Below, piece after piece: positions 1,643-36,072 of a stretch of 37,869 nt of DNA (positions within the stretch are counted from its first letter, which is position 1; the number at the start of each line of letters is the position of its first letter). The DNA is taken from NCBI GenBank assembly GCA_964460495.1, contig CAYWRF010000002.1:1-37869 (forward strand). The letters are read 5' to 3'. The position numbers and the translations under genes are program-made. The notes below the pieces were generated by a model. It had not been told where the DNA came from, did no database searches, and saw only the letters and a list, made by a program, of their open reading frames with translations. This DNA is from an uncultured Pseudomonadota bacterium (lineage in GTDB: Bacteria; UBA10199; JACPAL01).

Positions 1643-2779
1643 TCAGGGCCTCACGCATGTCGCAACAACATCAGAGATTGTGACAGGGCAGGCGCCCACC
1701 AAGCAGGAGTCAGATTCAAGATCCTCTTCATGCGCGAAGCGGTAAAGAATCCCCCCCGCTGAATTAATAGCTATTCTGCCATCACACGAGAAGTTTCCAT
1801 TTGTGTTGATCAAATTCAAGGAGCCATCGACATAGCGATAGAGATTACAGGAAGAGGTTACCAGAGACAGATTCCCGGCCGATTGCAAGACAACCAGGTA
1901 CAAATCTCCGGTCGTCTCATCAATGACGGAGCCTCGAATGCAACCTCCATTCAAAGATACCGGTTCTCGAATGTCACTGCTGCCTTCACGGACGAGGAGA
2001 GAGCAGACAGGAGGGCCACCCGAAGCCGTCAAGTCAATTCCACGGTTGATAGAGATGAAAAGCCTGTCCCGAACAGAATCATAGAGAAGAAGGGTAGCTC
2101 GGTTCTCTTCTCCAATTTGTTCCCAGCTCCCGTCATTAACACGGCAAGAAATGCCGGTGTTATGGCTGATACAGGTGAAAGGATCCGATCCCTTCGAGTA
2201 AGCGACAGCACTCTCTCCACGAAAATTGGTCGAAGCAGGTGAAATATCCTCCCAATCCCGCTCCGGCTTCTTTCGATAAAATCCAGATTGATAATTGGCG
2301 TTCAGACAGTTGGCATACAAAATATTCGTGTCCTTATCTAAGGTAGGAGTTCTGCAACCAAATGGCTGGCTCCCCGATGCGAGACTGGTCGCTGTTTTTT
2401 CGGAGAGGTCGAGTTCGACAATATCCGTCGAGGAGCCGAATAAATTCGATGTGCCGAAATAGAGCCTTGACCCCGAGGCGTCAAGGATCGCAGATTTTAT
2501 TGATTGCCCCTCCTCCCCCTCATATTCATACACCGTATCCCAATGACCGTCTCCACGGGTGCGGAAGATCTTGCGGCCAGCGACGTGGTACAAGAGGTCA
2601 CTTGTTCCATCGAACAGGAGAATCCCGTCGGTTAGACCTTGTTCAGCGACAGAAAGACTCCTGTTTGAATCGGCGTTATCGCAGAGGTTCGAAGCGGCAG
2701 AAGGAATGGGACCGGGTAGCCGATCTGCGTCTTTGCAGCCCAGGAATGAAAGCAGGATGAATAGTAATAGTTTTTTCAC
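1643..2779 (-). CDS. Cys-rich predicted lipoprotein, possible BNR/Asp-box-like beta-propeller; function unknown
   Basis: Best start is GTG at 2779, giving MKKLLLFILLSFLGC (lipobox LGC). The GTG overlaps the TGA stop of the upstream giant ORF (GTGA). Two DGxW motifs (RGDGHW, NDGSW). The supplied ORF begins at TTG 2797, inside the upstream gene. Confidence 0.7.
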   Translation of the reverse strand: MKKLLLFILLSFLGCKDADRLPGPIPSAASNLCDNADSNRSLSVAEQGLTDGILLFDGTSDLLYHVAGRKIFRTRGDGHWDTVYEYEGEEGQSIKSAILDASGSRLYFGTSNLFGSSTDIVELDLSEKTATSLASGSQPFGCRTPTLDKDTNILYANCLNANYQSGFYRKKPERDWEDISPASTNFRGESAVAYSKGSDPFTCISHNTGISCRVNDGSWEQIGEENRATLLLYDSVRDRLFISINRGIDLTASGGPPVCSLLVREGSSDIREPVSLNGGCIRGSVIDETTGDLYLVVLQSAGNLSLVTSSCNLYRYVDGSLNLINTNGNFSCDGRIAINSAGGILYRFAHEEDLESDSCLVGACPVTISDVVATCVRP

Positions 2780-5700
2780 ATCCTCACCAAACTGCAACCA
2801 CCAATCCCGACAAACTGGTAACGGTCGCCCTGGAGATCTCCCGACTCATCGGTCGCAGACGGTATTTCTGAGCCGACATCCGATGAAGCGGGAACGTCCT
2901 CTTCTTCTGTATCCGAGACAGACTCCAGCGTCGGCGTCTCCTGATTATTCGGTGTTGCCTCCAGTGTCGGCACCAAATTCCCTCCTACACCGGTATCATC
3001 GTAGACCTTCTCCGGTTCCGGTGAACTCCCCTTCAGTACCACGATGGTATTGACCCCTACAACGGTATTGGAGAGAACGCGGAGCGTCGCGTCATACTGC
3101 GCCGGTTCATTTGGAGCGAAGCGTACGGTCAAGCTTGCCGATTCTCCGGGAAGAACCGTCACAGAGGAGGGTCCTGCCGTAAAGGCAGATCGGCTGATCT
3201 CAAGACCAGTGACTTCCAACGGCTCATTGCCGTCATTCTGGATAGAGAAGATCCGTTCCGTTGAATCCCCCATCGCAACGGACCCGAAGTCGATTTCTGA
3301 CGTGGAAAGATGAAGTTCGGAATAAAAGGCATTCAAGACAACGACATGCACCGAATCGGTCGCGCTGTTTCCGGTCTGATCGGTGACGGTGACAAGGAAC
3401 TTCAGGAGTGTGTCAGCGGTCACGGAAGGTGCGGTAAAGACCGGTGTGGCAGAGGTCGGATCGTCCAGGGTGACCGTGGGGCCTTCCAGCTGCCTCCATT
3501 CAAATGTGAGGGTATCTCCCTCATTCGGATCGCCGCTGGCCGTTGCATCCAGGATGGTTGAAAAGCCCTCATCGGCACTCTGATCCGGACCGGCATCGGC
3601 CCTGGGGGCAAGTGCCCCATTCACGACGATGATGCTGACATCCTGACTGACGCTGTTTCCGTCCCGATCAGTTGCCGTCACGGTCAAGGTATGACTCCCC
3701 AGCGGCAATGTGACACCTAACGAATGGCCAGTTCCTAAGGGGCCCTCCAGGTCCGACTCCCACTGGATCGAATCGTCGGGGATGGGCCCATCCTCCGGAT
3801 CAAACGCCTCTGCCTCCAGGGTCACATTCGTTCCATTGAAGATGGTTTGCCCTTCTGCCGGTGATAGGATGACGAGCCTAGGGGGCTTTGAGGTAACACG
3901 AAAAGGCTGGGAATCGACCGAGGTCGTGTTGAAACCATCGGTCACGACGACCCGGACGACCGCGCGATCGCTTCCACCCAGTTTCGCTGTGTCGTACTGG
4001 AGGGAGGCTTGGTGCAACTCAACGCCAATCGTCTCAAATACCTCCCCCCCATTGATACTGTACAGCACCGAATAGCTTAATCGGTCACCATCTTCATCGG
4101 TTGCCGTCCATGCGACGTTCAGCATCCCCTGAACGAGACCTCCACCCTGAGGAGAGGTGAGGGTCACAACCGGTGCGTGATTCGTTTTGGATCGTTCAGC
4201 GATAACCTGCCCCCCTCTGATAAGCTGGATCTTTTCTACCCCCTCCAGATCCGGCAAGATCAGGTTAAAGGTAAAGGTTTTCTCATTGTTTCCCTCAAAG
4301 CCGGTCATCCCTCCCGCATCGACAAGCGGAAATTCAAAGATAAGATTGCCGCTTGCATCGATCGCGCGGACCAAGACAGAGTTTCCCTCCGAGGTTTCTT
4401 CAACAGAATCCGGTATGGAATCAGTTTGATAGATCGGCTGGATCTCTCCAGCCCCTTCGGGAGAGATCGAGCCGGCTACGAGCAGCGAGGGAATCGTTGC
4501 GACGCCGGTGCAGTTAAGGATGTGCCCACAGCCGCGGGCATTGGCGGGATCAGCAAGACGGGACCTCAGACGTTCAAAGAGAAACTGGTAGCGTTGCGGA
4601 TGGACCCATCGACGGTAATTGCCGGACTGTGACGGGTTAGTCGGCTTATAGGCCATGAAATCGATAGCTCCCGAACCGGGACAATTCGCAAGATTTGAAG
4701 AAGTGCAGGTAGACCAGTCAGCGGCTGACACTGGCAGGATCGTTTCTTTTTCCTCGGTATCAAAACCGACTTCAGAAATGGTTCCCATGTCGGTGGTGTG
4801 GTTGTCAGTATAACCACCGGGGCAATGTTCGCCAACAGACTTATGGGTATGACAGAGGCCGTAGGTATGGCCGATCTCATGGGCAAACATCTGCTCCGCG
4901 TCTGTCGGGTTGGACATGCCCATGCCGACTCTGCCGGGGATATCCTCGGCCCAACCTGATGCTGAATAATCAAATGGATACCAACCAAAGGTACGATCAG
5001 GTGGGGTGACATTACCAAGATGGGAGGCAAAGAAAAGTACCACCAATACCTTCTTATAATTACCGAGGGTAATGTCCCAGCCTACGGCTAGCGGAGGACG
5101 ACGGACATAGGTGATGCCGGAGAGCGGAAAGATCTTCTTGAAAAGCTTTGTCCCGTCCACCATGGCGGATACAGATGGAAGGGGACGGCCCAAAATTGAA
5201 AGAGGAATATAGTGAATTCTCGGCTGATAGTTGTTCCAAAACGTGGACGACCAGGCAAACAGATTATTTTGGTAATCACTCTCCAGATGACGGGCGACTC
5301 GAGCCCCAGTCGCCGGATTGATCTCTAGCCGGAATTCCACATTGACGGAGTCCGAACACGATCCGCACTGGGTCATATAGCCCGGCACGTGGAAGTTAAG
5401 CGTGTGGTTGACGGTTCCCCTGTCCGGATTGGGGACGACGTCGATCGGGCCGTTTTGCGATTGCAAGGGGGAGCCGTAAACCTCGTTTCCCGAACGAAAG
5501 ACGCGTAGAATCCCATCAACATTACGGATCGTATCATCGTCCATCGGCGCCATCCCGCCAAAGCTGTTTTGCCCGGCAAAGAGCTCTGCGTCGATAAAGA
5601 CCCGCACCTCGGTCGGTTTGCTCGCAACAAGGGGAAGGCTGTTATCGGTGGTTTGTATCGCCTGCGTCACCTCGAAATTCGAGACAGTCAAATCAAGTGC

Positions 5701-7656
5701 CGAGATCCCACGGCCGGCTAATGAGATCGTGCGAACAGGGAGATAGTAATCGTTGGAATATATCGTTAGCGCACCGCTCTGATCGCCAATGGCAGTCGGA
5801 CGGTAACGGACCTGTAACGTTCTTTCAGTGGCGGGGGGGACCGTAATGGTGGTACTGAGGGGGCTAAAGGCAGGGTGATTACTCTCTACATTTGAAATGG
5901 TGAGGGACTCGCCCCCATTGTTCTGAATAACGAGGGGGAGATCCAGTATCCCTGCATTACTCAGGTTACGAGGATCAACAGCGACGTTCTCGAAGTTGAG
6001 GGAATCAACGACGGAGATGCGCGGTGTAACACCTCGGCCTGTCAAGCCGATTGTGAGGCTCGGCAACTGCGGATCGTTACTCCTCACGATCAGATCCCCG
6101 CTCAAAGTCGTCTCTGAGGTCGGTGCGAAGCGAACCTCAAAGTCCTGAGAACCGCCGCCTGGTGCGATGGAAACAGTCGAGGGAGAGGCAGTTACGGCAG
6201 TCGACGGTGAAATAAAGCTCGTGATCGTCAATGTCGACGTCCCGTTGTTGGCAAGGTTCAAGACACGGCTGAGCGAGCCGCCCAGGTGAATGTCTCCCCA
6301 CGAGAGATTGAGTGTAGAGGGGTTGACGGAAGGTGAAACCCCCGTCCCCCTCAATGCAATGTTTGGAGAGGAGTTCGAGGGGTCATTCGAGTTCAGTGAC
6401 AAGTTATCCGTCTGGAAACCATTGACGGTAGGATTAAAATTCACCTGCACCGTCGCGGACTGACCCGGACTCAATGAGGTCACCGAGGGGCCTGTGAAGG
6501 AGAAGGCCCCGCCTGCCATCTGAAAGGAGCTTAGGTTGAGCGTGTTCGAAAAGGTGTTGTTGAGATTGGAAATCGTGATTGTTGTCGTGCGTACCTCCCC
6601 CAATGGGGTTGACCCGAAATTGTAACTCCCCGGAGCAATCTGGAGATAGGGTGCCACTCCTGTAACGCTCAGACCTAACGGGATTGTTGGTACATCCGGA
6701 TCGTTGCTGTCAATGGTCACCTGCCCGGTGAAATCACCCCTCGCTGAGGGTATTGCATTGATTGTAAACGACTGGGCGCTGCCGGGACCGACGCTCAACG
6801 AAGTCCCCGAGAGACTGAAAGGAGCGGAAATGTCAAGGCTCCCGGTCAGCGTCGCATCACCGACATTGCTGACCGACAAGATCCTCGATGAGGAACTATT
6901 GACCTGGAGCTGTCCAAAATCAAAGTCGGTGACATTCGTGGTGATATTTGGCTGGGGTTGATAGCCGACCCCCGCCAGAGAGACCTGAGGAATGGATACA
7001 AAGGCGCTCGAGAAACTGACGTTTCCGGAAAAGATGCCACCGGAGCCAGGGGCAAAGGTTACTGTAAATGACTGGGACCCTCCGGCGCCGATACCAAACG
7101 ATTGGGGAGAGACACTAAATGCCGAGCTCGAAGAGGCACTGCCTGCAAGCATCCCGCCGCCAGTGTTTCTCAACGTGAACGACCGTGTGGTGGAACCACC
7201 CACCGTCACGCTGCCGAAATCCAGGGTATCGGCACTGAGTGCTGGAACCGGTGTGGGTGGCGGAAGGCCCGATCCCGAAACTGAAACGGAGTCTGAACGC
7301 ATGCCACCGGTGAAACTGACCGTCATTGTTCCTGAATAGGTGACTGCAGAGGCAGGAGAGAAGGTAATCGTGACATCAACAACCTGTGCGTTCTCGATGG
7401 TAAACGTCGAGGGATTTGCCGAGAATCCGGGAGGGACCGAGATCGTGGCGACGACGGGTGAAGGGTAGACACAGCTCCCCAGATAACGGATGGTTGCTGT
7501 TCTGGTGGCCTGGCTTCCGACGATGACACTCCCGAAGCTGTAAGAAGAGGCGGTAAAACCGCCGGAGGGCTGGATGCAGAGAAAGGCCTCGCCCCGACCG
7601 GAGTGAAGGAAGAACAGAACGAACAGAAAGAAAATTTTTTTGCCCCAGCTCGACAC
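2776..7656 (-). CDS. giant secreted multidomain protein: signal peptide, repeated ASH/choice-of-anchor-D-like Ig domains, metzincin zinc-protease core (HEIGHTYGLCH), PKD/Big-like domains
   Basis: 1626 aa; GTG start with SD GGAAGGG; N-terminal signal peptide; repeats of the LxFGSVxVGxSxTxxFTLxNTG type; HExxHxxGxxH motif; AGPDQ...FEWRQLEGP...FTAP PKD-like segment and TATDEDGD / TATDRDG Big-like segments. Confidence 0.85.
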   Translation of the reverse strand: MSSWGKKIFFLFVLFFLHSGRGEAFLCIQPSGGFTASSYSFGSVIVGSQATRTATIRYLGSCVYPSPVVATISVPPGFSANPSTFTIENAQVVDVTITFSPASAVTYSGTMTVSFTGGMRSDSVSVSGSGLPPPTPVPALSADTLDFGSVTVGGSTTRSFTLRNTGGGMLAGSASSSSAFSVSPQSFGIGAGGSQSFTVTFAPGSGGIFSGNVSFSSAFVSIPQVSLAGVGYQPQPNITTNVTDFDFGQLQVNSSSSRILSVSNVGDATLTGSLDISAPFSLSGTSLSVGPGSAQSFTINAIPSARGDFTGQVTIDSNDPDVPTIPLGLSVTGVAPYLQIAPGSYNFGSTPLGEVRTTTITISNLNNTFSNTLNLSSFQMAGGAFSFTGPSVTSLSPGQSATVQVNFNPTVNGFQTDNLSLNSNDPSNSSPNIALRGTGVSPSVNPSTLNLSWGDIHLGGSLSRVLNLANNGTSTLTITSFISPSTAVTASPSTVSIAPGGGSQDFEVRFAPTSETTLSGDLIVRSNDPQLPSLTIGLTGRGVTPRISVVDSLNFENVAVDPRNLSNAGILDLPLVIQNNGGESLTISNVESNHPAFSPLSTTITVPPATERTLQVRYRPTAIGDQSGALTIYSNDYYLPVRTISLAGRGISALDLTVSNFEVTQAIQTTDNSLPLVASKPTEVRVFIDAELFAGQNSFGGMAPMDDDTIRNVDGILRVFRSGNEVYGSPLQSQNGPIDVVPNPDRGTVNHTLNFHVPGYMTQCGSCSDSVNVEFRLEINPATGARVARHLESDYQNNLFAWSSTFWNNYQPRIHYIPLSILGRPLPSVSAMVDGTKLFKKIFPLSGITYVRRPPLAVGWDITLGNYKKVLVVLFFASHLGNVTPPDRTFGWYPFDYSASGWAEDIPGRVGMGMSNPTDAEQMFAHEIGHTYGLCHTHKSVGEHCPGGYTDNHTTDMGTISEVGFDTEEKETILPVSAADWSTCTSSNLANCPGSGAIDFMAYKPTNPSQSGNYRRWVHPQRYQFLFERLRSRLADPANARGCGHILNCTGVATIPSLLVAGSISPEGAGEIQPIYQTDSIPDSVEETSEGNSVLVRAIDASGNLIFEFPLVDAGGMTGFEGNNEKTFTFNLILPDLEGVEKIQLIRGGQVIAERSKTNHAPVVTLTSPQGGGLVQGMLNVAWTATDEDGDRLSYSVLYSINGGEVFETIGVELHQASLQYDTAKLGGSDRAVVRVVVTDGFNTTSVDSQPFRVTSKPPRLVILSPAEGQTIFNGTNVTLEAEAFDPEDGPIPDDSIQWESDLEGPLGTGHSLGVTLPLGSHTLTVTATDRDGNSVSQDVSIIVVNGALAPRADAGPDQSADEGFSTILDATASGDPNEGDTLTFEWRQLEGPTVTLDDPTSATPVFTAPSVTADTLLKFLVTVTDQTGNSATDSVHVVVLNAFYSELHLSTSEIDFGSVAMGDSTERIFSIQNDGNEPLEVTGLEISRSAFTAGPSSVTVLPGESASLTVRFAPNEPAQYDATLRVLSNTVVGVNTIVVLKGSSPEPEKVYDDTGVGGNLVPTLEATPNNQETPTLESVSDTEEEDVPASSDVGSEIPSATDESGDLQGDRYQFVGIGGCSLVRM

Positions 7657-26845: not shown

Positions 26846-28486
<1,641 letters not shown>

Positions 28487-28511
28487 TTACTTAATGATTA
28501 ACGAACAACCT

Positions 28512-28829
28512 TTATGACTCTAAGACTCCCAACACATCCTCTTCCTTGACGATCAAATGCTCTTCCCCCTCAATCTTGACCTCTGTCCCTGAGTATTTGC
28601 TGAAGAGGATCTTCTCGCCGACCTTGATTTCCAGAGGAACGACCTTCCCGTCATCGAGGACCTTCCCCTTTCCGATCGCCACAACCCTTCCCTCTTGAGG
28701 TTTCTCCTTGGCGGTATCCGGGATGATAATCCCCCCCTTGGTCTTCTCCTCTTCGTTCAATCTTTTAACAAGGATCCGATCCTGAAGCGGCCGGATCTTC
28801 ATCTTTTTTTGATTCTGGTTTGTTGTCAT
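28512..28829 (-). CDS. groS: co-chaperonin GroES
   Basis: 105 aa; [14 protein letters not shown] core preceded by a 9-aa N-terminal extension; SD AAGGAGG before ATG 28829. Confidence 0.95.
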
Positions 28830-28941: not shown

Positions 28942-28953
28942 GGGGTGATCTGA

Positions 28954-29040
28954 CAGGTTGTTGATAAAGGCCCATCTGCGGCGCCTTGCATCTGGGACCT
29001 TTCTCAACAGCCTGGAGAATCATCGTTTGTCAACAAACTT
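28954..29040. mobile_element. internally deleted copy of the 150-bp MITE-like element
   Basis: CAGGTTGTTGATAAAGGCCCATCTGC-ggcgccttg-CATCTGGGACCTTTCTCAACAGCCTGG-agaatcatc-GTTTGTCAACAAAC = both subterminal inverted-repeat ends plus the terminal 14-mer, with the internal region missing. Confidence 0.6.
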
Positions 29041-29073
29041 GCCAGGATGGGTGATATGACAGTAAGTAACTAA

Positions 29074-29223
29074 GAGGTTGTTGACAAAGTGGGTATGAAA
29101 GGATGTTGAGAAAGGTCCCAGATACGAGGCAGGCCGCTGAGGCGCGACGCAGGCGTACTTGACAGTACGTCGAGGAGCGACCGAGGCGGCCAACGAAGTA
29201 GATGGGCCTTTGTCAACATCCTG
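29074..29223. mobile_element. 150-bp MITE-like element copy, flanked by 4-bp direct repeat CTAA
   Basis: CTAA at 29070-29073 and 29224-29227; ends GAGGTTGTTGACAAAG … GGGCCTTTGTCAACATCCTG; same architecture as copies at 33890 and 35901; ends 6 bp before the mnmE ATG. Confidence 0.7.
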
Positions 29224-29229
29224 CTAAGG

Positions 29230-30588
29230 ATGAATATCAGTTGTGAGGGTACCATTGCGGCGATAGCGACGGCGCCGGGGGCTGGGGCGATCGGGGTGAT
29301 CAGGCTTTCGGGAACTAAGGCCCTCGATATCCTTAAGACTATCTGGAGGGGGAAGACCGACCCGGGGCGATTTGAGGCAGGTCGGGTCTATGTCGGTTCG
29401 GTTGTCGATCCGGTCGATAGCTCCGCCTTGGATTCTGTCCTGGTCTTCTGGATGAAGGGGCCACACTCCTATACGGGTGAGGATCTGGTTGAGATTCAGG
29501 CCCATGGTGGACGCACGATACTAGAAACCCTCCTGGAGAAACTGGTTCAGGCGGGGGCGCGTCTTGCCCACCCCGGGGAGTTTACCAGGAGGGCCTTTCT
29601 GAACGGGCGTCTCGATCTCACACAGGCAGAGGCGGTGGCCGATCTCATTGCTGCCTCGAGTCGTGAGGCGGCCCGACTGGCTGAAAGTCAACTCTCCGGT
29701 TCCCTCTCCCAATATGTCAAAAAGCTCAAGAATGATCTCACGGTGCTTCGTGCCCAAATGGAGGCGATGATCGATTTTCCTGAGGATGAGGATCTGCAGG
29801 GTCTCCATGATGATGAGATCGGGGAGAGGATCGGTCGGGTCAGGGGATCGATTGCAGGCCTTCTTGCGACTTATCGTCAGGGGCACGTCTTTCGGGACGG
29901 AGTTCGGGTGGCGATCGTCGGCAAGCCGAACGTCGGGAAATCGAGTCTCCTGAACGCCCTGTTGGGTGAGGATCGCGCGATTGTCCATCCAACCCCCGGG
30001 ACCACACGAGATCTGATCGAGGAAACGATACTGATCGATGGACTTCCCGTTCGGTTCATCGATACCGCAGGTTTAAGACAGGGGGCGGAACCGATCGAGG
30101 CGGAGGGGATTCGGAGGACGCGTGAACGTATTTCCGGGGCCGATCTGGTCCTGGCCGTCTTTGATTCCAGCCGCCCTTGGGAGGTGGAAGACGACGATCT
30201 CCTCAAGACGGTTTCCGGCAAGGAGGTCTTCCGCCTCTATAACAAGGAGGACCTTCCACCCTCGTTTGACCTGAAGATCAACGGGATTAAAATATCGGCT
30301 AAGGAAGGGACGGGGATCCGGGAACTCAAACAGGCGATCTTCTCCCATTTTGTCCGCCGCGAGACACCGGCCGAGGTTGTGTTGACCAACGTCCGACACA
30401 AGGTGGCGTTGGAGAAGGGGTTGCAAATGTTGGAAAAGGTTGCCGAGAGTGCCCATCAAAAGATCTCTCTTGAATTCCTTGCATCCGACCTCCTGATCGC
30501 CACCCATCATCTGGCCGAGATCACCGGGGAGATCACAAATGATGAGGTTTTAGGCGAGATCTTTTCCCGATTTTGCCTTGGGAAGTGA
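29230..30588 (+). CDS. mnmE: tRNA modification GTPase MnmE (TrmE)
   Basis: 452 aa; TIAAIATAPG N-terminus; G-domain GKPNVGKSSLLNAL; C-terminal CLGK. Confidence 0.95.
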   Translation: MNISCEGTIAAIATAPGAGAIGVIRLSGTKALDILKTIWRGKTDPGRFEAGRVYVGSVVDPVDSSALDSVLVFWMKGPHSYTGEDLVEIQAHGGRTILETLLEKLVQAGARLAHPGEFTRRAFLNGRLDLTQAEAVADLIAASSREAARLAESQLSGSLSQYVKKLKNDLTVLRAQMEAMIDFPEDEDLQGLHDDEIGERIGRVRGSIAGLLATYRQGHVFRDGVRVAIVGKPNVGKSSLLNALLGEDRAIVHPTPGTTRDLIEETILIDGLPVRFIDTAGLRQGAEPIEAEGIRRTRERISGADLVLAVFDSSRPWEVEDDDLLKTVSGKEVFRLYNKEDLPPSFDLKINGIKISAKEGTGIRELKQAIFSHFVRRETPAEVVLTNVRHKVALEKGLQMLEKVAESAHQKISLEFLASDLLIATHHLAEITGEITNDEVLGEIFSRFCLGK

Positions 30589-32864: not shown

Positions 32865-33401
32865 TTATCGTAGTCTTGTGGCCTCCCCTTCCTCCTCCCA
32901 ACCGATCTTTTCCAGGAAATCATCGTAACTGCCGTTAAAAACTTCCGCCGTCCCGTGTTGGAACAGCACGAGGCGCGTAGGAATCTCCCTCAGGATCATT
33001 TCGCTGTGGGTGACAATGACGACGGCCCCCTCAAACTCCTTGATCCCTTCAATGAGTGCCTCAATCGATTGCATATCCAGATGGTTGGTCGGCTCATCGA
33101 GCAACAGGAGGTTAGGGCTGGAAACCAGGACCTTGGCCAGGTTCAGCCGGATCTGAAAGCCGCCGGAAAAGGTGGAGGGTGGCTTCGCCATATCCTCCTC
33201 GACAAAACCCAGCCCAAAGAGGATCCGCTCCACTTTGTAGTGGTCCCACTCTTCCCCTTCCGGCAGACCGAGACACCCCTCTTCCAGAACGGTCGGTTGC
33301 GTAAAATGGATGTGCTGGGCCAAATGCCCAATCCGGTAGTTACGGGGGACGGAGATCTTTAAGGATTTGAGGGCCGTAGGATTTGTAGAGATTCTGAATG
33401 C
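32865..33401 (-). pseudogene. 3' remnant of an ABC-F family ATPase gene (C-terminal part of an ABC domain only)
   Basis: Frame open from the TAA at 33402-33404. It encodes …RIGHLAQHIHFTQ… (Q-loop), FSGGFQIRLNLAKV (signature), LLLDEPTNHLD (Walker B) and VTHSE (H-loop). No Walker A and no upstream coding frame. The supplied ORF begins at an internal TTG. Confidence 0.6.
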
Positions 33402-33850: not shown

Positions 33851-33889
33851 ATTAGGGGACACATTAGGGGACGTTGTTCACCAAGTTAA
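33851..33889. repeat. left arm of a long imperfect palindrome: ATTAGGGGAC x2, GTTGTT, GTTAAC
   Basis: The reverse complement matches 34064-34103 (ACAACGTCCCC[T/C]AAT..GTCCCC[T/C]AAT plus GTTAAC); the two arms enclose MITE copy B. Confidence 0.6.
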
Positions 33890-34039
33890 CAGGATGTTGA
33901 CAAAGGCCCATCTGCTGCGTTGCCCGCGGCAGGCCCTCCTTGCGGCGTACAGCAAGTACGCCTCAGTCGTGCCTTTGCGGGCGCCTTGCATCTGGGCCTT
34001 TCTCAGCATCCTGGGAAAACATGGTTTGTCAACAAACTG
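33890..34039. mobile_element. 150-bp MITE-like element copy B, flanked by TTAA (GTTAAC reconstituted on both sides)
   Basis: CAGGATGTTGACAAAGGCCCATCTGC … GCATCTGGGCCTTTCTCAGCATCCTGG-gaaaacatg-GTTTGTCAACAAACTG; TTAA at 33886-33889 and 34040-34043; 146/150 identical to the reverse complement of copy C. Confidence 0.75.
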
Positions 34040-34063
34040 TTAACTTAAATAGGATTTGAGTTA

Positions 34064-34103
34064 GTTAACGTAGTAAACAACGTCCCCCAATCCGTCCCCC
34101 AAT
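34064..34103. repeat. right arm of the long palindrome (GTTAAC, ACAAC, GTCCCCCAAT x2) in the bcp 3' region
   Basis: See 33851-33889. Confidence 0.6.
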
Positions 34104-34106
34104 CCC

Positions 34107-34556
34107 CTAAAGTTCCCGCAGCAGCTTGAGCGATTCTTCGACGTGGCGGGCAGGGTTCCACTGGGAGGAAAAGGAGTTCCGGACCACCCCGTTCCGGTCG
34201 ATCACCAGGGTCACCCGGCCCGGGAGCAGACCCCAGGTTTTTGGAATCCGATAAAGTTGCCGGATCTTGCCCTGCTGGTCGCTCAGCAGGAGAAAAGGCA
34301 ACCGGTGTCGCCCCGCGAATTTTTTGTGGGTTTCGGGGGGATCAGAACTGATGCCGATCACCTCGACCCCCGCCTTTTGAAACTGTTCATAATGATCTCG
34401 AAACGTGCAAGCCTCTTTGATGCAGCCGGGGGTCTCGTCCCTGGGGTAGAAGAAAATCACCACCGGGCGCTTCCCTTTGAAATTGGAAAGTCGCGTCAAC
34501 TTGCCATCAGCCGATGGTAGTTCAAAATCAGGCGCCTGGTCTCCCTTCTGGATCAT
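34107..34556 (-). CDS. bcp: thiol peroxidase Bcp/PrxQ (peroxiredoxin)
   Basis: 149 aa; PVVIFFYPRDETPGC (peroxidatic Cys context); thioredoxin fold. Confidence 0.9.
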   Translation of the reverse strand: MIQKGDQAPDFELPSADGKLTRLSNFKGKRPVVIFFYPRDETPGCIKEACTFRDHYEQFQKAGVEVIGISSDPPETHKKFAGRHRLPFLLLSDQQGKIRQLYRIPKTWGLLPGRVTLVIDRNGVVRNSFSSQWNPARHVEESLKLLREL

Positions 34557-34580
34557 TTTAACGGGTGGATCGCTGCCCCA

Positions 34581-34596
34581 TTCGACTTACGTCGAA
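34581..34596. promoter_or_regulatory. 16-bp palindrome TTCGAC-ttac-GTCGAA in the bcp / zinc-ribbon divergent region
   Basis: 25-40 bp upstream of the bcp ATG; candidate operator. Confidence 0.3.
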
Positions 34597-34745
34597 TGCG
34601 GACCCCATCCCCCCGTACCCCTTTCGTTCGGACCGGCGAAGCCGGTTCCTCACTCACATGGCAACCCCACTTAAATCACTTGGCACCGATTTTCACTACC
34701 TTTTTGTCTTGATTCTTTTTCACGGGACACGCAGCATGCCGAGCC

Positions 34746-35000
34746 GTGAAGCTGCTATTGATCCTCCTGATTCTTTACGTTTTCTACCGGCTCTTTCTCC
34801 GGTTTCTGCCGGGGTTGATTCGTCTTGGGATGAAAGGGGTCCTAAAAAAGGGGGGTGAGTCACGGCAGGGGGAGGCACACGATATGGCCCCCTGTTCCCG
34901 TTGTGGAACCTACATGAGCCGGGACCTCGCGCTTGCCCAGTCGGGGGAATACTACTGTAGCGAGAAATGTCGGAATGAGGGCTCGACAATCGCCCCCTAA
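34746..35000 (+). CDS. small membrane protein with C-terminal zinc-ribbon (CxxC…C…C), PP0621-like
   Basis: 84 aa; GTG start; TM helix KLLLILLILYVFYRLFLRF; CSRCGTYMSRDLALAQSGEYYCSEKC; SD AAGGAG lies downstream before the SPFH gene, so the two likely form an operon. Confidence 0.5.
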   Translation: MKLLLILLILYVFYRLFLRFLPGLIRLGMKGVLKKGGESRQGEAHDMAPCSRCGTYMSRDLALAQSGEYYCSEKCRNEGSTIAP

Positions 35001-35048
35001 AGGCTGTAGGACACGCTCGGTCTTCAAACAAACCAAAAGGAGAACGCT

Positions 35049-35900
35049 ATGAATGGAAATGGCGAAATCATCGATTTGCAGAATGCAATGAAGAAACTGA
35101 TTCCAAAGGGAAACAAGAAGCTTCTCATCCTGGCGGCCATCCTGGGCCTCTTGATAATACCCAAGTCGATCACCGTGATTCCGGCAGGGCATGTCGGGCT
35201 CAAGGATTTCTTTGGCAGGGTATCGGATGAGACGCTCCCGGCCGGATTGCACCTCGTCAACCCGTTGCTCAGAATTCATAAGATGACGATTCGAACGCAA
35301 GAACTCACGGAAGAGGCGAACGTTCCCTCTAAAGAGGGTTTGAGCGTGCATCTGGATATCTCGCTCTTGTTCAGCCTGAATCCCGATAAGGCGGCGCAGG
35401 TTTATAAGACGATCGGCCCCGACTACATTCGTGTGGTGGTTGTGCCACAGCTTCGGTCGATTGTACGGGGGGTCACCGCCAGCTACGAGGCCAAGGCGCT
35501 CTATACGGCGGAACGGGAGGCGATTTCCACCGAGATGTTTTCGCACCTGCAGGCACCCCTGCTGGAGCGTGGGATGACGGTGGAAAAGGTGCTGTTGAGG
35601 AGCGCCACCCTGCCGGTCATTCTCGCCACGGCGATCGAGAAAAAGCTGGAGGCGGAACAGCAGTCGGAGCAGATGAAGTTCGTCCTGAATAAAGAGACCC
35701 AAGAGGCGCAGCGGAAGAGGATTGAGGCGCAGGGGGTCGCCGATTTCCAGAAGATTGTGACGGCGGGACTCAACGATGCATTCCTCCGCTGGAAGGGGAT
35801 CGAGGCGACCGCCAAGCTGGCCGACAGCCAGAATAGCAAGGTAGTCGTGATCGGCAGCGGCAAGGATGGATTGCCGATCATCCTGGGGGGAAATCCCTAG
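35049..35900 (+). CDS. SPFH/band-7 (prohibitin/HflC-like) membrane protein
   Basis: 283 aa; N-terminal TM then SPFH domain; coiled-coil C-terminal part; SD AAGGAG. Confidence 0.85.
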   Translation: MNGNGEIIDLQNAMKKLIPKGNKKLLILAAILGLLIIPKSITVIPAGHVGLKDFFGRVSDETLPAGLHLVNPLLRIHKMTIRTQELTEEANVPSKEGLSVHLDISLLFSLNPDKAAQVYKTIGPDYIRVVVVPQLRSIVRGVTASYEAKALYTAEREAISTEMFSHLQAPLLERGMTVEKVLLRSATLPVILATAIEKKLEAEQQSEQMKFVLNKETQEAQRKRIEAQGVADFQKIVTAGLNDAFLRWKGIEATAKLADSQNSKVVVIGSGKDGLPIILGGNP

Positions 35901-36050
35901 CAGTTTGTTGACAAACCATGTTTTCCCAGGATGTTGAGAAAGGCCCAGATGCAAGGCGCCCGCAAAGGCACGACTGAGGCGTACTTGCTGTACGCCGCAA
36001 GGAGGGCCTGCCGCGGGCAACGCAGCAGATGAGCCTTTGTCGGCATCCTG
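35901..36050. mobile_element. 150-bp MITE-like element copy C, flanked by CTAG
   Basis: CAGTTTGTTGACAAAC-catgttttcc-CAGGATGTTGAGAAAGGCCCAGATGC … GCAGATGAGCCTTTGTCGGCATCCTG; CTAG at 35897-35900 (contains the SPFH stop TAG) and 36051-36054. Confidence 0.75.
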
Positions 36051-36072
36051 CTAGAAACCGAGGGGTACCTTG

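Follow-up and report, generated by a model that had tools for sequence, protein, structure and literature searches.

A 150-bp repeat between unrelated genes

The window analysed here is the whole stretch of 37,869 nucleotides of contig CAYWRF010000002.1 (assembly GCA_964460495.1), from an uncultured bacterium of the GTDB lineage UBA10199. It contains a family of short repeats, hereafter family 1, represented by three copies of exactly 150 bp (c1, c2 and c3) and by a fourth, shortened copy (c0). All these copies are intergenic and occur in unrelated contexts: c1 lies between the groES promoter and mnmE, c2 between the stop codon of bcp and the start of a glutaredoxin gene, and c3 directly 3' of an SPFH/Band_7 gene (open reading frame (ORF) 35049-35900), with a phytochelatin-synthase-like ORF starting 19 bp beyond it. 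The repeats have no coding capacity, the ORFs that cross them being merely mechanical and not conserved between copies. When the elements are read from one end, which we call the A end (CAGGATGTTGACAAAGGCCCATCTGC), c2 is on the forward strand and c1 and c3 are on the reverse strand. c2 and c3 are 96% complementary across 156 nt, while c1 is 77% identical to both. Each full copy is bracketed on both sides by a perfect 4-bp direct repeat, and the similarity among copies ends exactly at the 150-bp borders and the 4-bp repeats. The features are listed below by position, with the direct repeats labelled as target-site duplications in accordance with the interpretation developed in the following sections.

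28953-29039, forward strand: c0, short copy of about 87 bp (covariance model 62.6 bits; nhmmer; self-comparison of the window)
29070-29073: left target-site duplication of c1, CTAA, the same as 29224-29227 (sequence)
29074-29223, reverse strand: c1, full 150-bp copy, beta subfamily (nhmmer 153 bits; covariance model 137 bits), with its A end (CAGGATGTTGACAAAGGCCC) at 29223 and its B end (GAGGTTGTTGACAAAG) at 29074
29224-29227: right target-site duplication of c1, CTAA (sequence)
33886-33889: left target-site duplication of c2, TTAA (sequence)
33890-34039, forward strand: c2, full 150-bp copy, alpha subfamily (RNA fold -78.8 kcal/mol, z -6.4; nhmmer; covariance model)
34040-34043: right target-site duplication of c2, TTAA (sequence)
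35897-35900: left target-site duplication of c3, CTAG, containing the SPFH stop codon TAG (35898-35900)
35901-36050, reverse strand: c3, full 150-bp copy, alpha subfamily (nhmmer; covariance model; neighbouring genes by Pfam)
36051-36054: right target-site duplication of c3, CTAG (sequence)

All full copies carry imperfect 15-nt terminal inverted repeats CAGNNTGTTGACAAA at both ends, with 0-2 mismatches. Read from the A end, positions 1-124 form a single long imperfect hairpin, in whose outermost stem the A end is paired with A' (CCTTTCTCARCATCCTG), an inverted copy located inside the element. The last 26 nt (positions 125-150) consist of an 11-nt spacer and the 15-nt B end (…TTTGTCAACAAACTG), which is a third copy of the motif. 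The duplications lie on either side of the 150-bp unit, which makes A and B the functional ends. The end motif is over-represented in the window: TGTTGASAAAGG, with at most 2 mismatches, occurs 21 times against 5.3 expected, and 0 of 100 shuffles gave as many as 21. The element has a G+C content of about 60%; as RNA, the whole 150 nt folds at the energy listed for c2, and the opposite strand folds equally well.

The original prediction, made from the sequence without database searches, had placed the three 150-bp copies and their CTAA, TTAA and CTAG direct repeats exactly where we find them, all between genes. The internal layout shows small differences from its description. The proposed ends CAG(N2)TGTTGACAAA are present with small deviations, as the B end of c1 starts with GAG and the A end of c3 is CAGGATGCCGACAAA. 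The subterminal inverted copy of the motif, which had been put about 10 bp inside one end, does exist and begins 26 nt inward of the B end. The apical hairpin that had been given as GGCGTAC-N6-GTACGCC has a loop of five nucleotides in c2 and c3 (GGCGTAC-N5-GTACGCC), while c1 has the six-nucleotide loop but a changed arm (GGCGTAC-N6-GTACGTC).

The short copy c0 had been overlooked. It retains both ends, the A' arm and the tail, but a deletion between TGCG microhomologies has removed about 63 bp of the central hairpin. Its ends are degenerate (the B end reads ...AACTT) and its flanks, CTGA and GCCA, form no matching duplication. The 34-bp spacer that separates c0 from c1 holds CAGGATGGGTGATATGAC (29043-29060), which looks like a decayed additional A-end motif, and the groES-mnmE spacer may have been a target of repeated insertions. 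At the other side of c1, the ATG of mnmE (identified by Pfam) is found at 29230, only 2 nt past the end of the right duplication.

c2, for its part, interrupts the loop of an older inverted repeat of 40 nt (33851-33890 and 34064-34103, 83% complementary), both arms of which contain a tandem ATTRGGGGACR motif, directly 3' of the bcp stop codon. The motif has no other occurrence with 0 mismatches in the window. This inverted repeat possibly represents a hairpin of the terminator type or some other small repeat.

Dispersed copies and their 4-bp flanks

Copies outside the window were collected by scanning metagenome contigs and genomes, one for each species, for an exact 20-mer, followed by a profile search (nhmmer) and by extraction of the flanks; the loci fetched are designated by L numbers. 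In the genomes, the family was found in one other metagenome-assembled genome, MGSF01 (Deltaproteobacteria bacterium RIFCSPLOWO2_02_FULL_50_16), the other hits being coding or chance matches. The same 20-mer retrieved 52 loci from the metagenome contigs. Altogether, about 30 further distinct insertion sites were obtained in metagenome contigs of the same organism and in the related MGSF01. A blastn comparison with plasmids gave chance matches only, including a recurrent Rhizobium hit that was rejected by the covariance model, and a full-text search of the literature for the end sequence returned unrelated primers only.

Among approximately 20 non-redundant full copies, 15 have identical 4-bp flanks on both sides (TTAG five times, CTAA four times, CTAG three times, TTAA twice and GTAG once), and the check proposed with the original prediction, to look for further copies and for YTAR duplications around each, has turned out in favour of it. 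Ten of the 15 pairs are non-palindromic, which marks them as genuine direct repeats, as opposed to inverted repeats that extend further. When one-sided copies at contig ends are counted, a YTAR tetranucleotide is present at 26 of 30 distinct A-side flanks and at 18 of 21 distinct B-side flanks (85-87% over the approximately 30 distinct sites). The members of the alpha subfamily (c2, c3, L059, L027 and L030) are 97-99% identical, yet they are flanked by differing matching tetranucleotides. The flanks are therefore not borne by the element, and a duplication restricted to TA is excluded. The near identity of alpha copies with different matching flanks also points to recent activity of family 1.

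The beta subfamily links the two organisms. c1, which is 100% identical to the copy of L072, is 89-91% identical to MGSF01 copies (L006 and L010), while the groEL/groES DNA of the two organisms is 72% identical (window 26847-28799 compared with L013). That the beta copies are more similar than groEL suggests a horizontal spread of the element system or, possibly, a strong constraint. Two hairpins were also seen in contigs from other, more G+C-rich organisms: L053 (57-182) has outer arms of the family-1 type, no B tail and no 4-bp duplication, and L033 (204-392) is a longer, divergent version of the hairpin.

The original prediction had noted stress genes next to the copies. We find no support for this neighbourhood being meaningful; the recurrent feature is instead insertion at stop codons. 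Eight of 21 non-redundant copies (drawn from the window, L006-L008, L010, L013, L023, L025, L027, L030-L032, L048, L051, L052, L059, L069 and L072) start directly after a stop codon that lies within the YTAR duplication, as c3 does after the SPFH gene. Because YTAR contains TAA or TAG, insertions on stop codons regenerate the stop, a tidy consequence of this targeting. The orientation of the element relative to the neighbouring genes is unbiased (7 forward and 7 reverse), which argues against a strand-specific role as RNA.

Probable mobilisation and the putative partner transposase

Taken together, the data make it very probable that the repeats are copies of a non-autonomous DNA transposon, or MITE (for miniature inverted-repeat transposable element), that duplicates a 4-bp YTAR target. 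Their size (less than about 300 bp), lack of coding capacity, terminal inverted repeats, duplications of fixed length and dispersed copies are all those of MITEs. Further insight comes from L008, where positions 7276-7429 (also represented by L028 and L061) are occupied by a 154-bp element that has the family-1 ends CAGNNTGTTGACAAA and a CTAG/CTAG duplication around an unrelated interior; its first 17 nt are identical to the B end of the alpha subfamily. Two cargoes that share the same 15-nt ends and the same type of duplication suggest that one transposase recognises CAGNNTGTTGACAAA and acts in trans. With this element and some 30 sites in two organisms, the earlier proposal of a dispersed, MITE-like repeat mobilised in trans is upheld. 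The interior of the L008 element folds at -66 kcal/mol, and it shares short modules (CATGTACGTGT... and CCCCTCTTTA...) with small palindromic insertions in the MGSF01 copies L023, L048, L051 and L037.

We propose the following scheme. A DDE-type transposase encoded elsewhere would bind the A and B ends, excise or copy the element and join it to a YTAR tetranucleotide via a 4-bp staggered cut; repair of the stagger would then yield the 4-bp direct repeats. Wherever it is co-transcribed, the inserted element would provide 3' or 5' untranslated regions with a very stable stem-loop.

Judged from the length and sequence of the target alone, the partner is most likely an enzyme of the IS5 group, a call that, if the repeats are MITEs, we regard as roughly even. 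The ends may resemble that of IS903 (TTTGTTGA.AA). A second, subterminal copy of the end motif at one end is not known as a feature of IS5. In E. coli, IS5 generates 4-bp duplications with the spectrum CTAA, TTAG, CTAG and TTAA, i.e. YTAR (PMC5009759), the same as found here next to short terminal inverted repeats of about 15 nt. The IS5-type assignment of the original prediction is therefore demonstrated only for the target, 4 bp long and of YTAR sequence.

A partner from outside the IS5 family, such as IS701 or an IS630/Tc1-like enzyme, is the less probable choice. The termini 5'-CAG...CTG-3' and the central TA recall IS630/Tc1, but such an enzyme would duplicate TA only, and this is excluded by the outer bases, which change together on the two sides in copies that are 97-99% identical. 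IS701 duplicates exactly 4 bp (PMC2266710), as observed here. However, CAGGATGTTGAC does not fit the published IS701 end consensus, ---YACT-Y--YR, which is itself stated not to represent the whole family (PMC2266710). Within the IS5 family, IS711 uses a YTAR target and duplicates only TA (PMC2266754). The dissimilarity of our ends to those of IS5 itself is in line with a non-IS5 enzyme as well; on the other side stands the tetranucleotide spectrum, which is precisely that reported for IS5 (PMC5009759).

Several observations weigh against a MITE mobilised by an IS5-group enzyme. (i), No transposase domain was detected by Pfam in any sizeable ORF of the window (the original prediction had likewise seen no transposase gene there), and no autonomous partner was found in about 0.8 Mb of fetched loci, in which a phmmer search with the E. 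coli IS5 transposase InsH against 3168 six-frame ORFs gave no match; this is why the transposase family is inferred from the target alone. (ii), The ends do not convincingly resemble those of E. coli IS5, GGAAGGTGCGAAYAAG. (iii), Viral contigs gave 0 matches in the 20-mer scan and 23 matches to YTAR plus the end motif, all of which are phage promoter-like TTGACA sites without an inverted partner. (iv), The flanks are mismatched in four copies (L006, L072, L030 and L043); at least two contigs combine flanks of different copies, L043 joining the left flank of L023 to the right flank of L013 and L063 the left flank of L072 to the right flank of c1, both of which reflect chimeric assembly or recombination. 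(v), Filled and empty versions of one orthologous site were not recovered. (vi), The strong covariation and the conserved internal loops of the hairpin body (see below) are not predicted by a purely selfish DNA model.

Some of these points can be placed in context. Many accepted MITE families, Correia for example, have no known partner. Inverted end motifs at an IS-like spacing were absent from all fetched loci, and in L011 and L020 the partial copies are adjoined by ordinary genes. When GroES, Bcp, SPFH and MnmE were used in look-ups, the contigs carrying the window genes all belonged to the same strain (99.9%), with the sites filled. In relatives with an SPFH protein of 83-89% identity, the element is missing after the SPFH gene and from the surrounding 20 kb, but the downstream synteny is lost, so that they do not qualify as strict empty sites. 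Contig breaks at the repeat explain the fragmentation of this organism's assemblies; most contigs with window genes are shorter than 5.5 kb, and the assemblies are chimeric or broken at the repeat.

Comparison with described elements helps to situate family 1. Tourist-like MITEs of the PIF-Harbinger superfamily, eukaryotic relatives of IS5, are short hairpin MITEs with TA-centred targets that are mobilised in trans by an IS5-related superfamily; they differ from the element described here by a 3-bp TWA duplication and their eukaryotic hosts. Correia elements (CREE/NEMIS) of Neisseria insert at TA-containing targets, duplicate TA only and form a hairpin from 26-bp terminal repeats, whereas family 1 duplicates 4 bp and builds its hairpin from one end and an internal copy, and the sequences show no similarity. 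The resemblance is otherwise considerable: like family 1, Correia elements are about 150 bp long with shorter, internally deleted variants (104-157 bp, PMC3184786), and in both cases there are many intergenic copies, a long hairpin is possible and no autonomous partner is found in the same genomes. Chunjie from Geobacter uraniireducens is another deltaproteobacterial MITE with intergenic copies and a very stable predicted fold. It is 178-235 bp long and A+T-rich, with 21-bp terminal repeats and 9-bp direct repeats (PMC3184786, PMC10969869), and its size and 9-bp repeats rule it out as the same family, the element here being 150 bp long and about 60% G+C, with 4-bp repeats.

Family 1 is an ordinary kind of element, and with its discovery an uncultured deltaproteobacterial lineage of which little is known gains a thoroughly documented MITE family that comprises two subfamilies and has had a recent burst. 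The unusual part of family 1 is the long and well-conserved hairpin body.

The hairpin body and neighbouring features

The 124-nt body covaries strongly. In a covariance-model alignment (the model was built from 15 sequences), 95.9% of the cells are paired, and both sides have changed in 20 of 33 pairs, which is not reached by any of 500 shuffles. Within family 1, for example, the stems GCCCGC/GCGGGC and CTGC/GCAT of the alpha subfamily become GGCCGC/GCGGCC and CTAC/GTAT in the beta subfamily. The original prediction had opposed a dispersed repeat to a conserved structured-RNA gene with compensatory base changes. Such changes are indeed present in the hairpin body and speak in part for the second of these, but they do not cancel the evidence for mobility.

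The covariance model also finds four more hairpin families, f2 to f5, in MGSF01-like contigs:

L026 8630-8752, L061 8223-8348 and L013 280-450: f2 (covariance model)
L011 652-778: f3 (covariance model)
L020 4337-4459: f4 (covariance model)
L067 9946-10073: f5 (covariance model)

Their outer stems are unrelated in sequence, and their fold is that of the family-1 body. In all five families, 28-29 nt separate the base of the hairpin from the invariant CGTTGCCC, and an invariant CGUUGCCC is found at the same distance; AAA follows a single mismatch near position 12; a 3x3 pyrimidine-rich internal loop and an invariant U.G pair are held in common; and the apical stem GGCGTAC-loop-GTACGCC is mostly conserved. 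No clear duplications flank f2 to f5, of which there are few examples. f5, f2 (in L026) and f4 seemingly carry a tail and a third copy of their own terminal arm.

How should this conservation be understood? Inverted repeats that are bound by one protein also co-vary, and covariation alone cannot separate terminal repeats from structure. Nevertheless, selection on a folded single strand accounts better for the fixed geometry and the conserved asymmetric loops across families with different ends. The hairpin body is probably more than filler and under selection as a structure, be it as RNA or as single-stranded DNA. A further step is to regard the 124-nt body as a functional structured module in its own right, common to at least five repeat families of this deltaproteobacterial lineage. 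This idea is secondary, unproven and on balance doubtful, and it does not displace the MITE explanation. Were it true, the module would have been picked up by different mobile "chassis", or these would have evolved around it, with family 1 riding on a YTAR-targeting DDE transposase, and the module could serve for protein binding or processing, to the benefit of host or element. This would amount to a new class of structured mobile element, acting as RNA or as single-stranded DNA. The conservation of the body, with covariation, across families with unrelated ends makes it testable as a structured RNA or DNA module.

It could also be argued that the repeats are not transposons of the DDE type at all but structured non-coding RNAs or single-stranded DNA hairpin elements of the REP/REPIN type, propagated by an enzyme that recognises hairpins, for instance a RAYT-type Y1 transposase, and kept for a host or element function, the YTAR flanks reflecting a mere site preference. 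The covariation of the body would be accounted for in this way, as would the architecture that f2 to f5 share despite unrelated outer stems and their lack of obvious duplications. ERIC/IRU and REP/REPIN elements are indeed long imperfect palindromes, intergenic or 3' of genes, with stems kept by compensatory changes. They produce no target duplications, however, and REPINs are linked to RAYT genes, while family 1 has clear 4-bp duplications and DDE-style ends. We consider this alternative improbable because (i), matching but variable 4-bp repeats occur at 15 sites, and near-identical copies have different flanks, while Y1/HUH elements make no target duplication; (ii), the L008 element uses the same ends and the same duplication with an unrelated interior; (iii), there is no orientation bias relative to transcription; and (iv), the elements have no Rfam match: in Rfam 15, only a tRNA reaches the gathering score in the window, and nothing overlaps the elements at E<=10. 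Finally, local segmental duplication or an assembly artefact, which the inverted arrangement of c2 and c3 only 1.9 kb apart and the breakage, sometimes chimeric, of metagenome contigs at the repeat might have suggested, is refuted by the exact stop of similarity at the 150-bp borders and 4-bp repeats and by about 30 distinct flanks in independent assemblies (JGI, ENA, Logan and NCBI) and in a second organism.

A search for outward-facing hybrid promoters gave one weak match only, at 34026-34055 and antisense to bcp. The groES promoter, beside c0, is a near-consensus sigma-70-type promoter (11/12, TTGACA-16-TATATT, 28941-28914 on the reverse strand). A CIRCE operator is found nowhere in the window, including upstream of groES. 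The groES orthologue of MGSF01 has a perfect CIRCE (TTAGCACTC-N9-GAGTGCTAA, L013 1017-1043) and, about 150 bp further upstream, a family-1 copy at a site that differs from that in the window.

Two other genes of the window deserve mention. On the reverse strand at 32865-33323, there is an ORF of 152 aa whose match to the ABC_tran profile is confined to the profile's C-terminal half (positions 74-137 of 137); it has the appearance of a pseudogene or of an ABC ATPase gene that has been truncated. Also on the reverse strand, positions 2776-7656 encode a protein of 1626 aa, unrelated to the repeats, with six HYDIN/ASH-type Ig-like repeats and a weak metallopeptidase motif.

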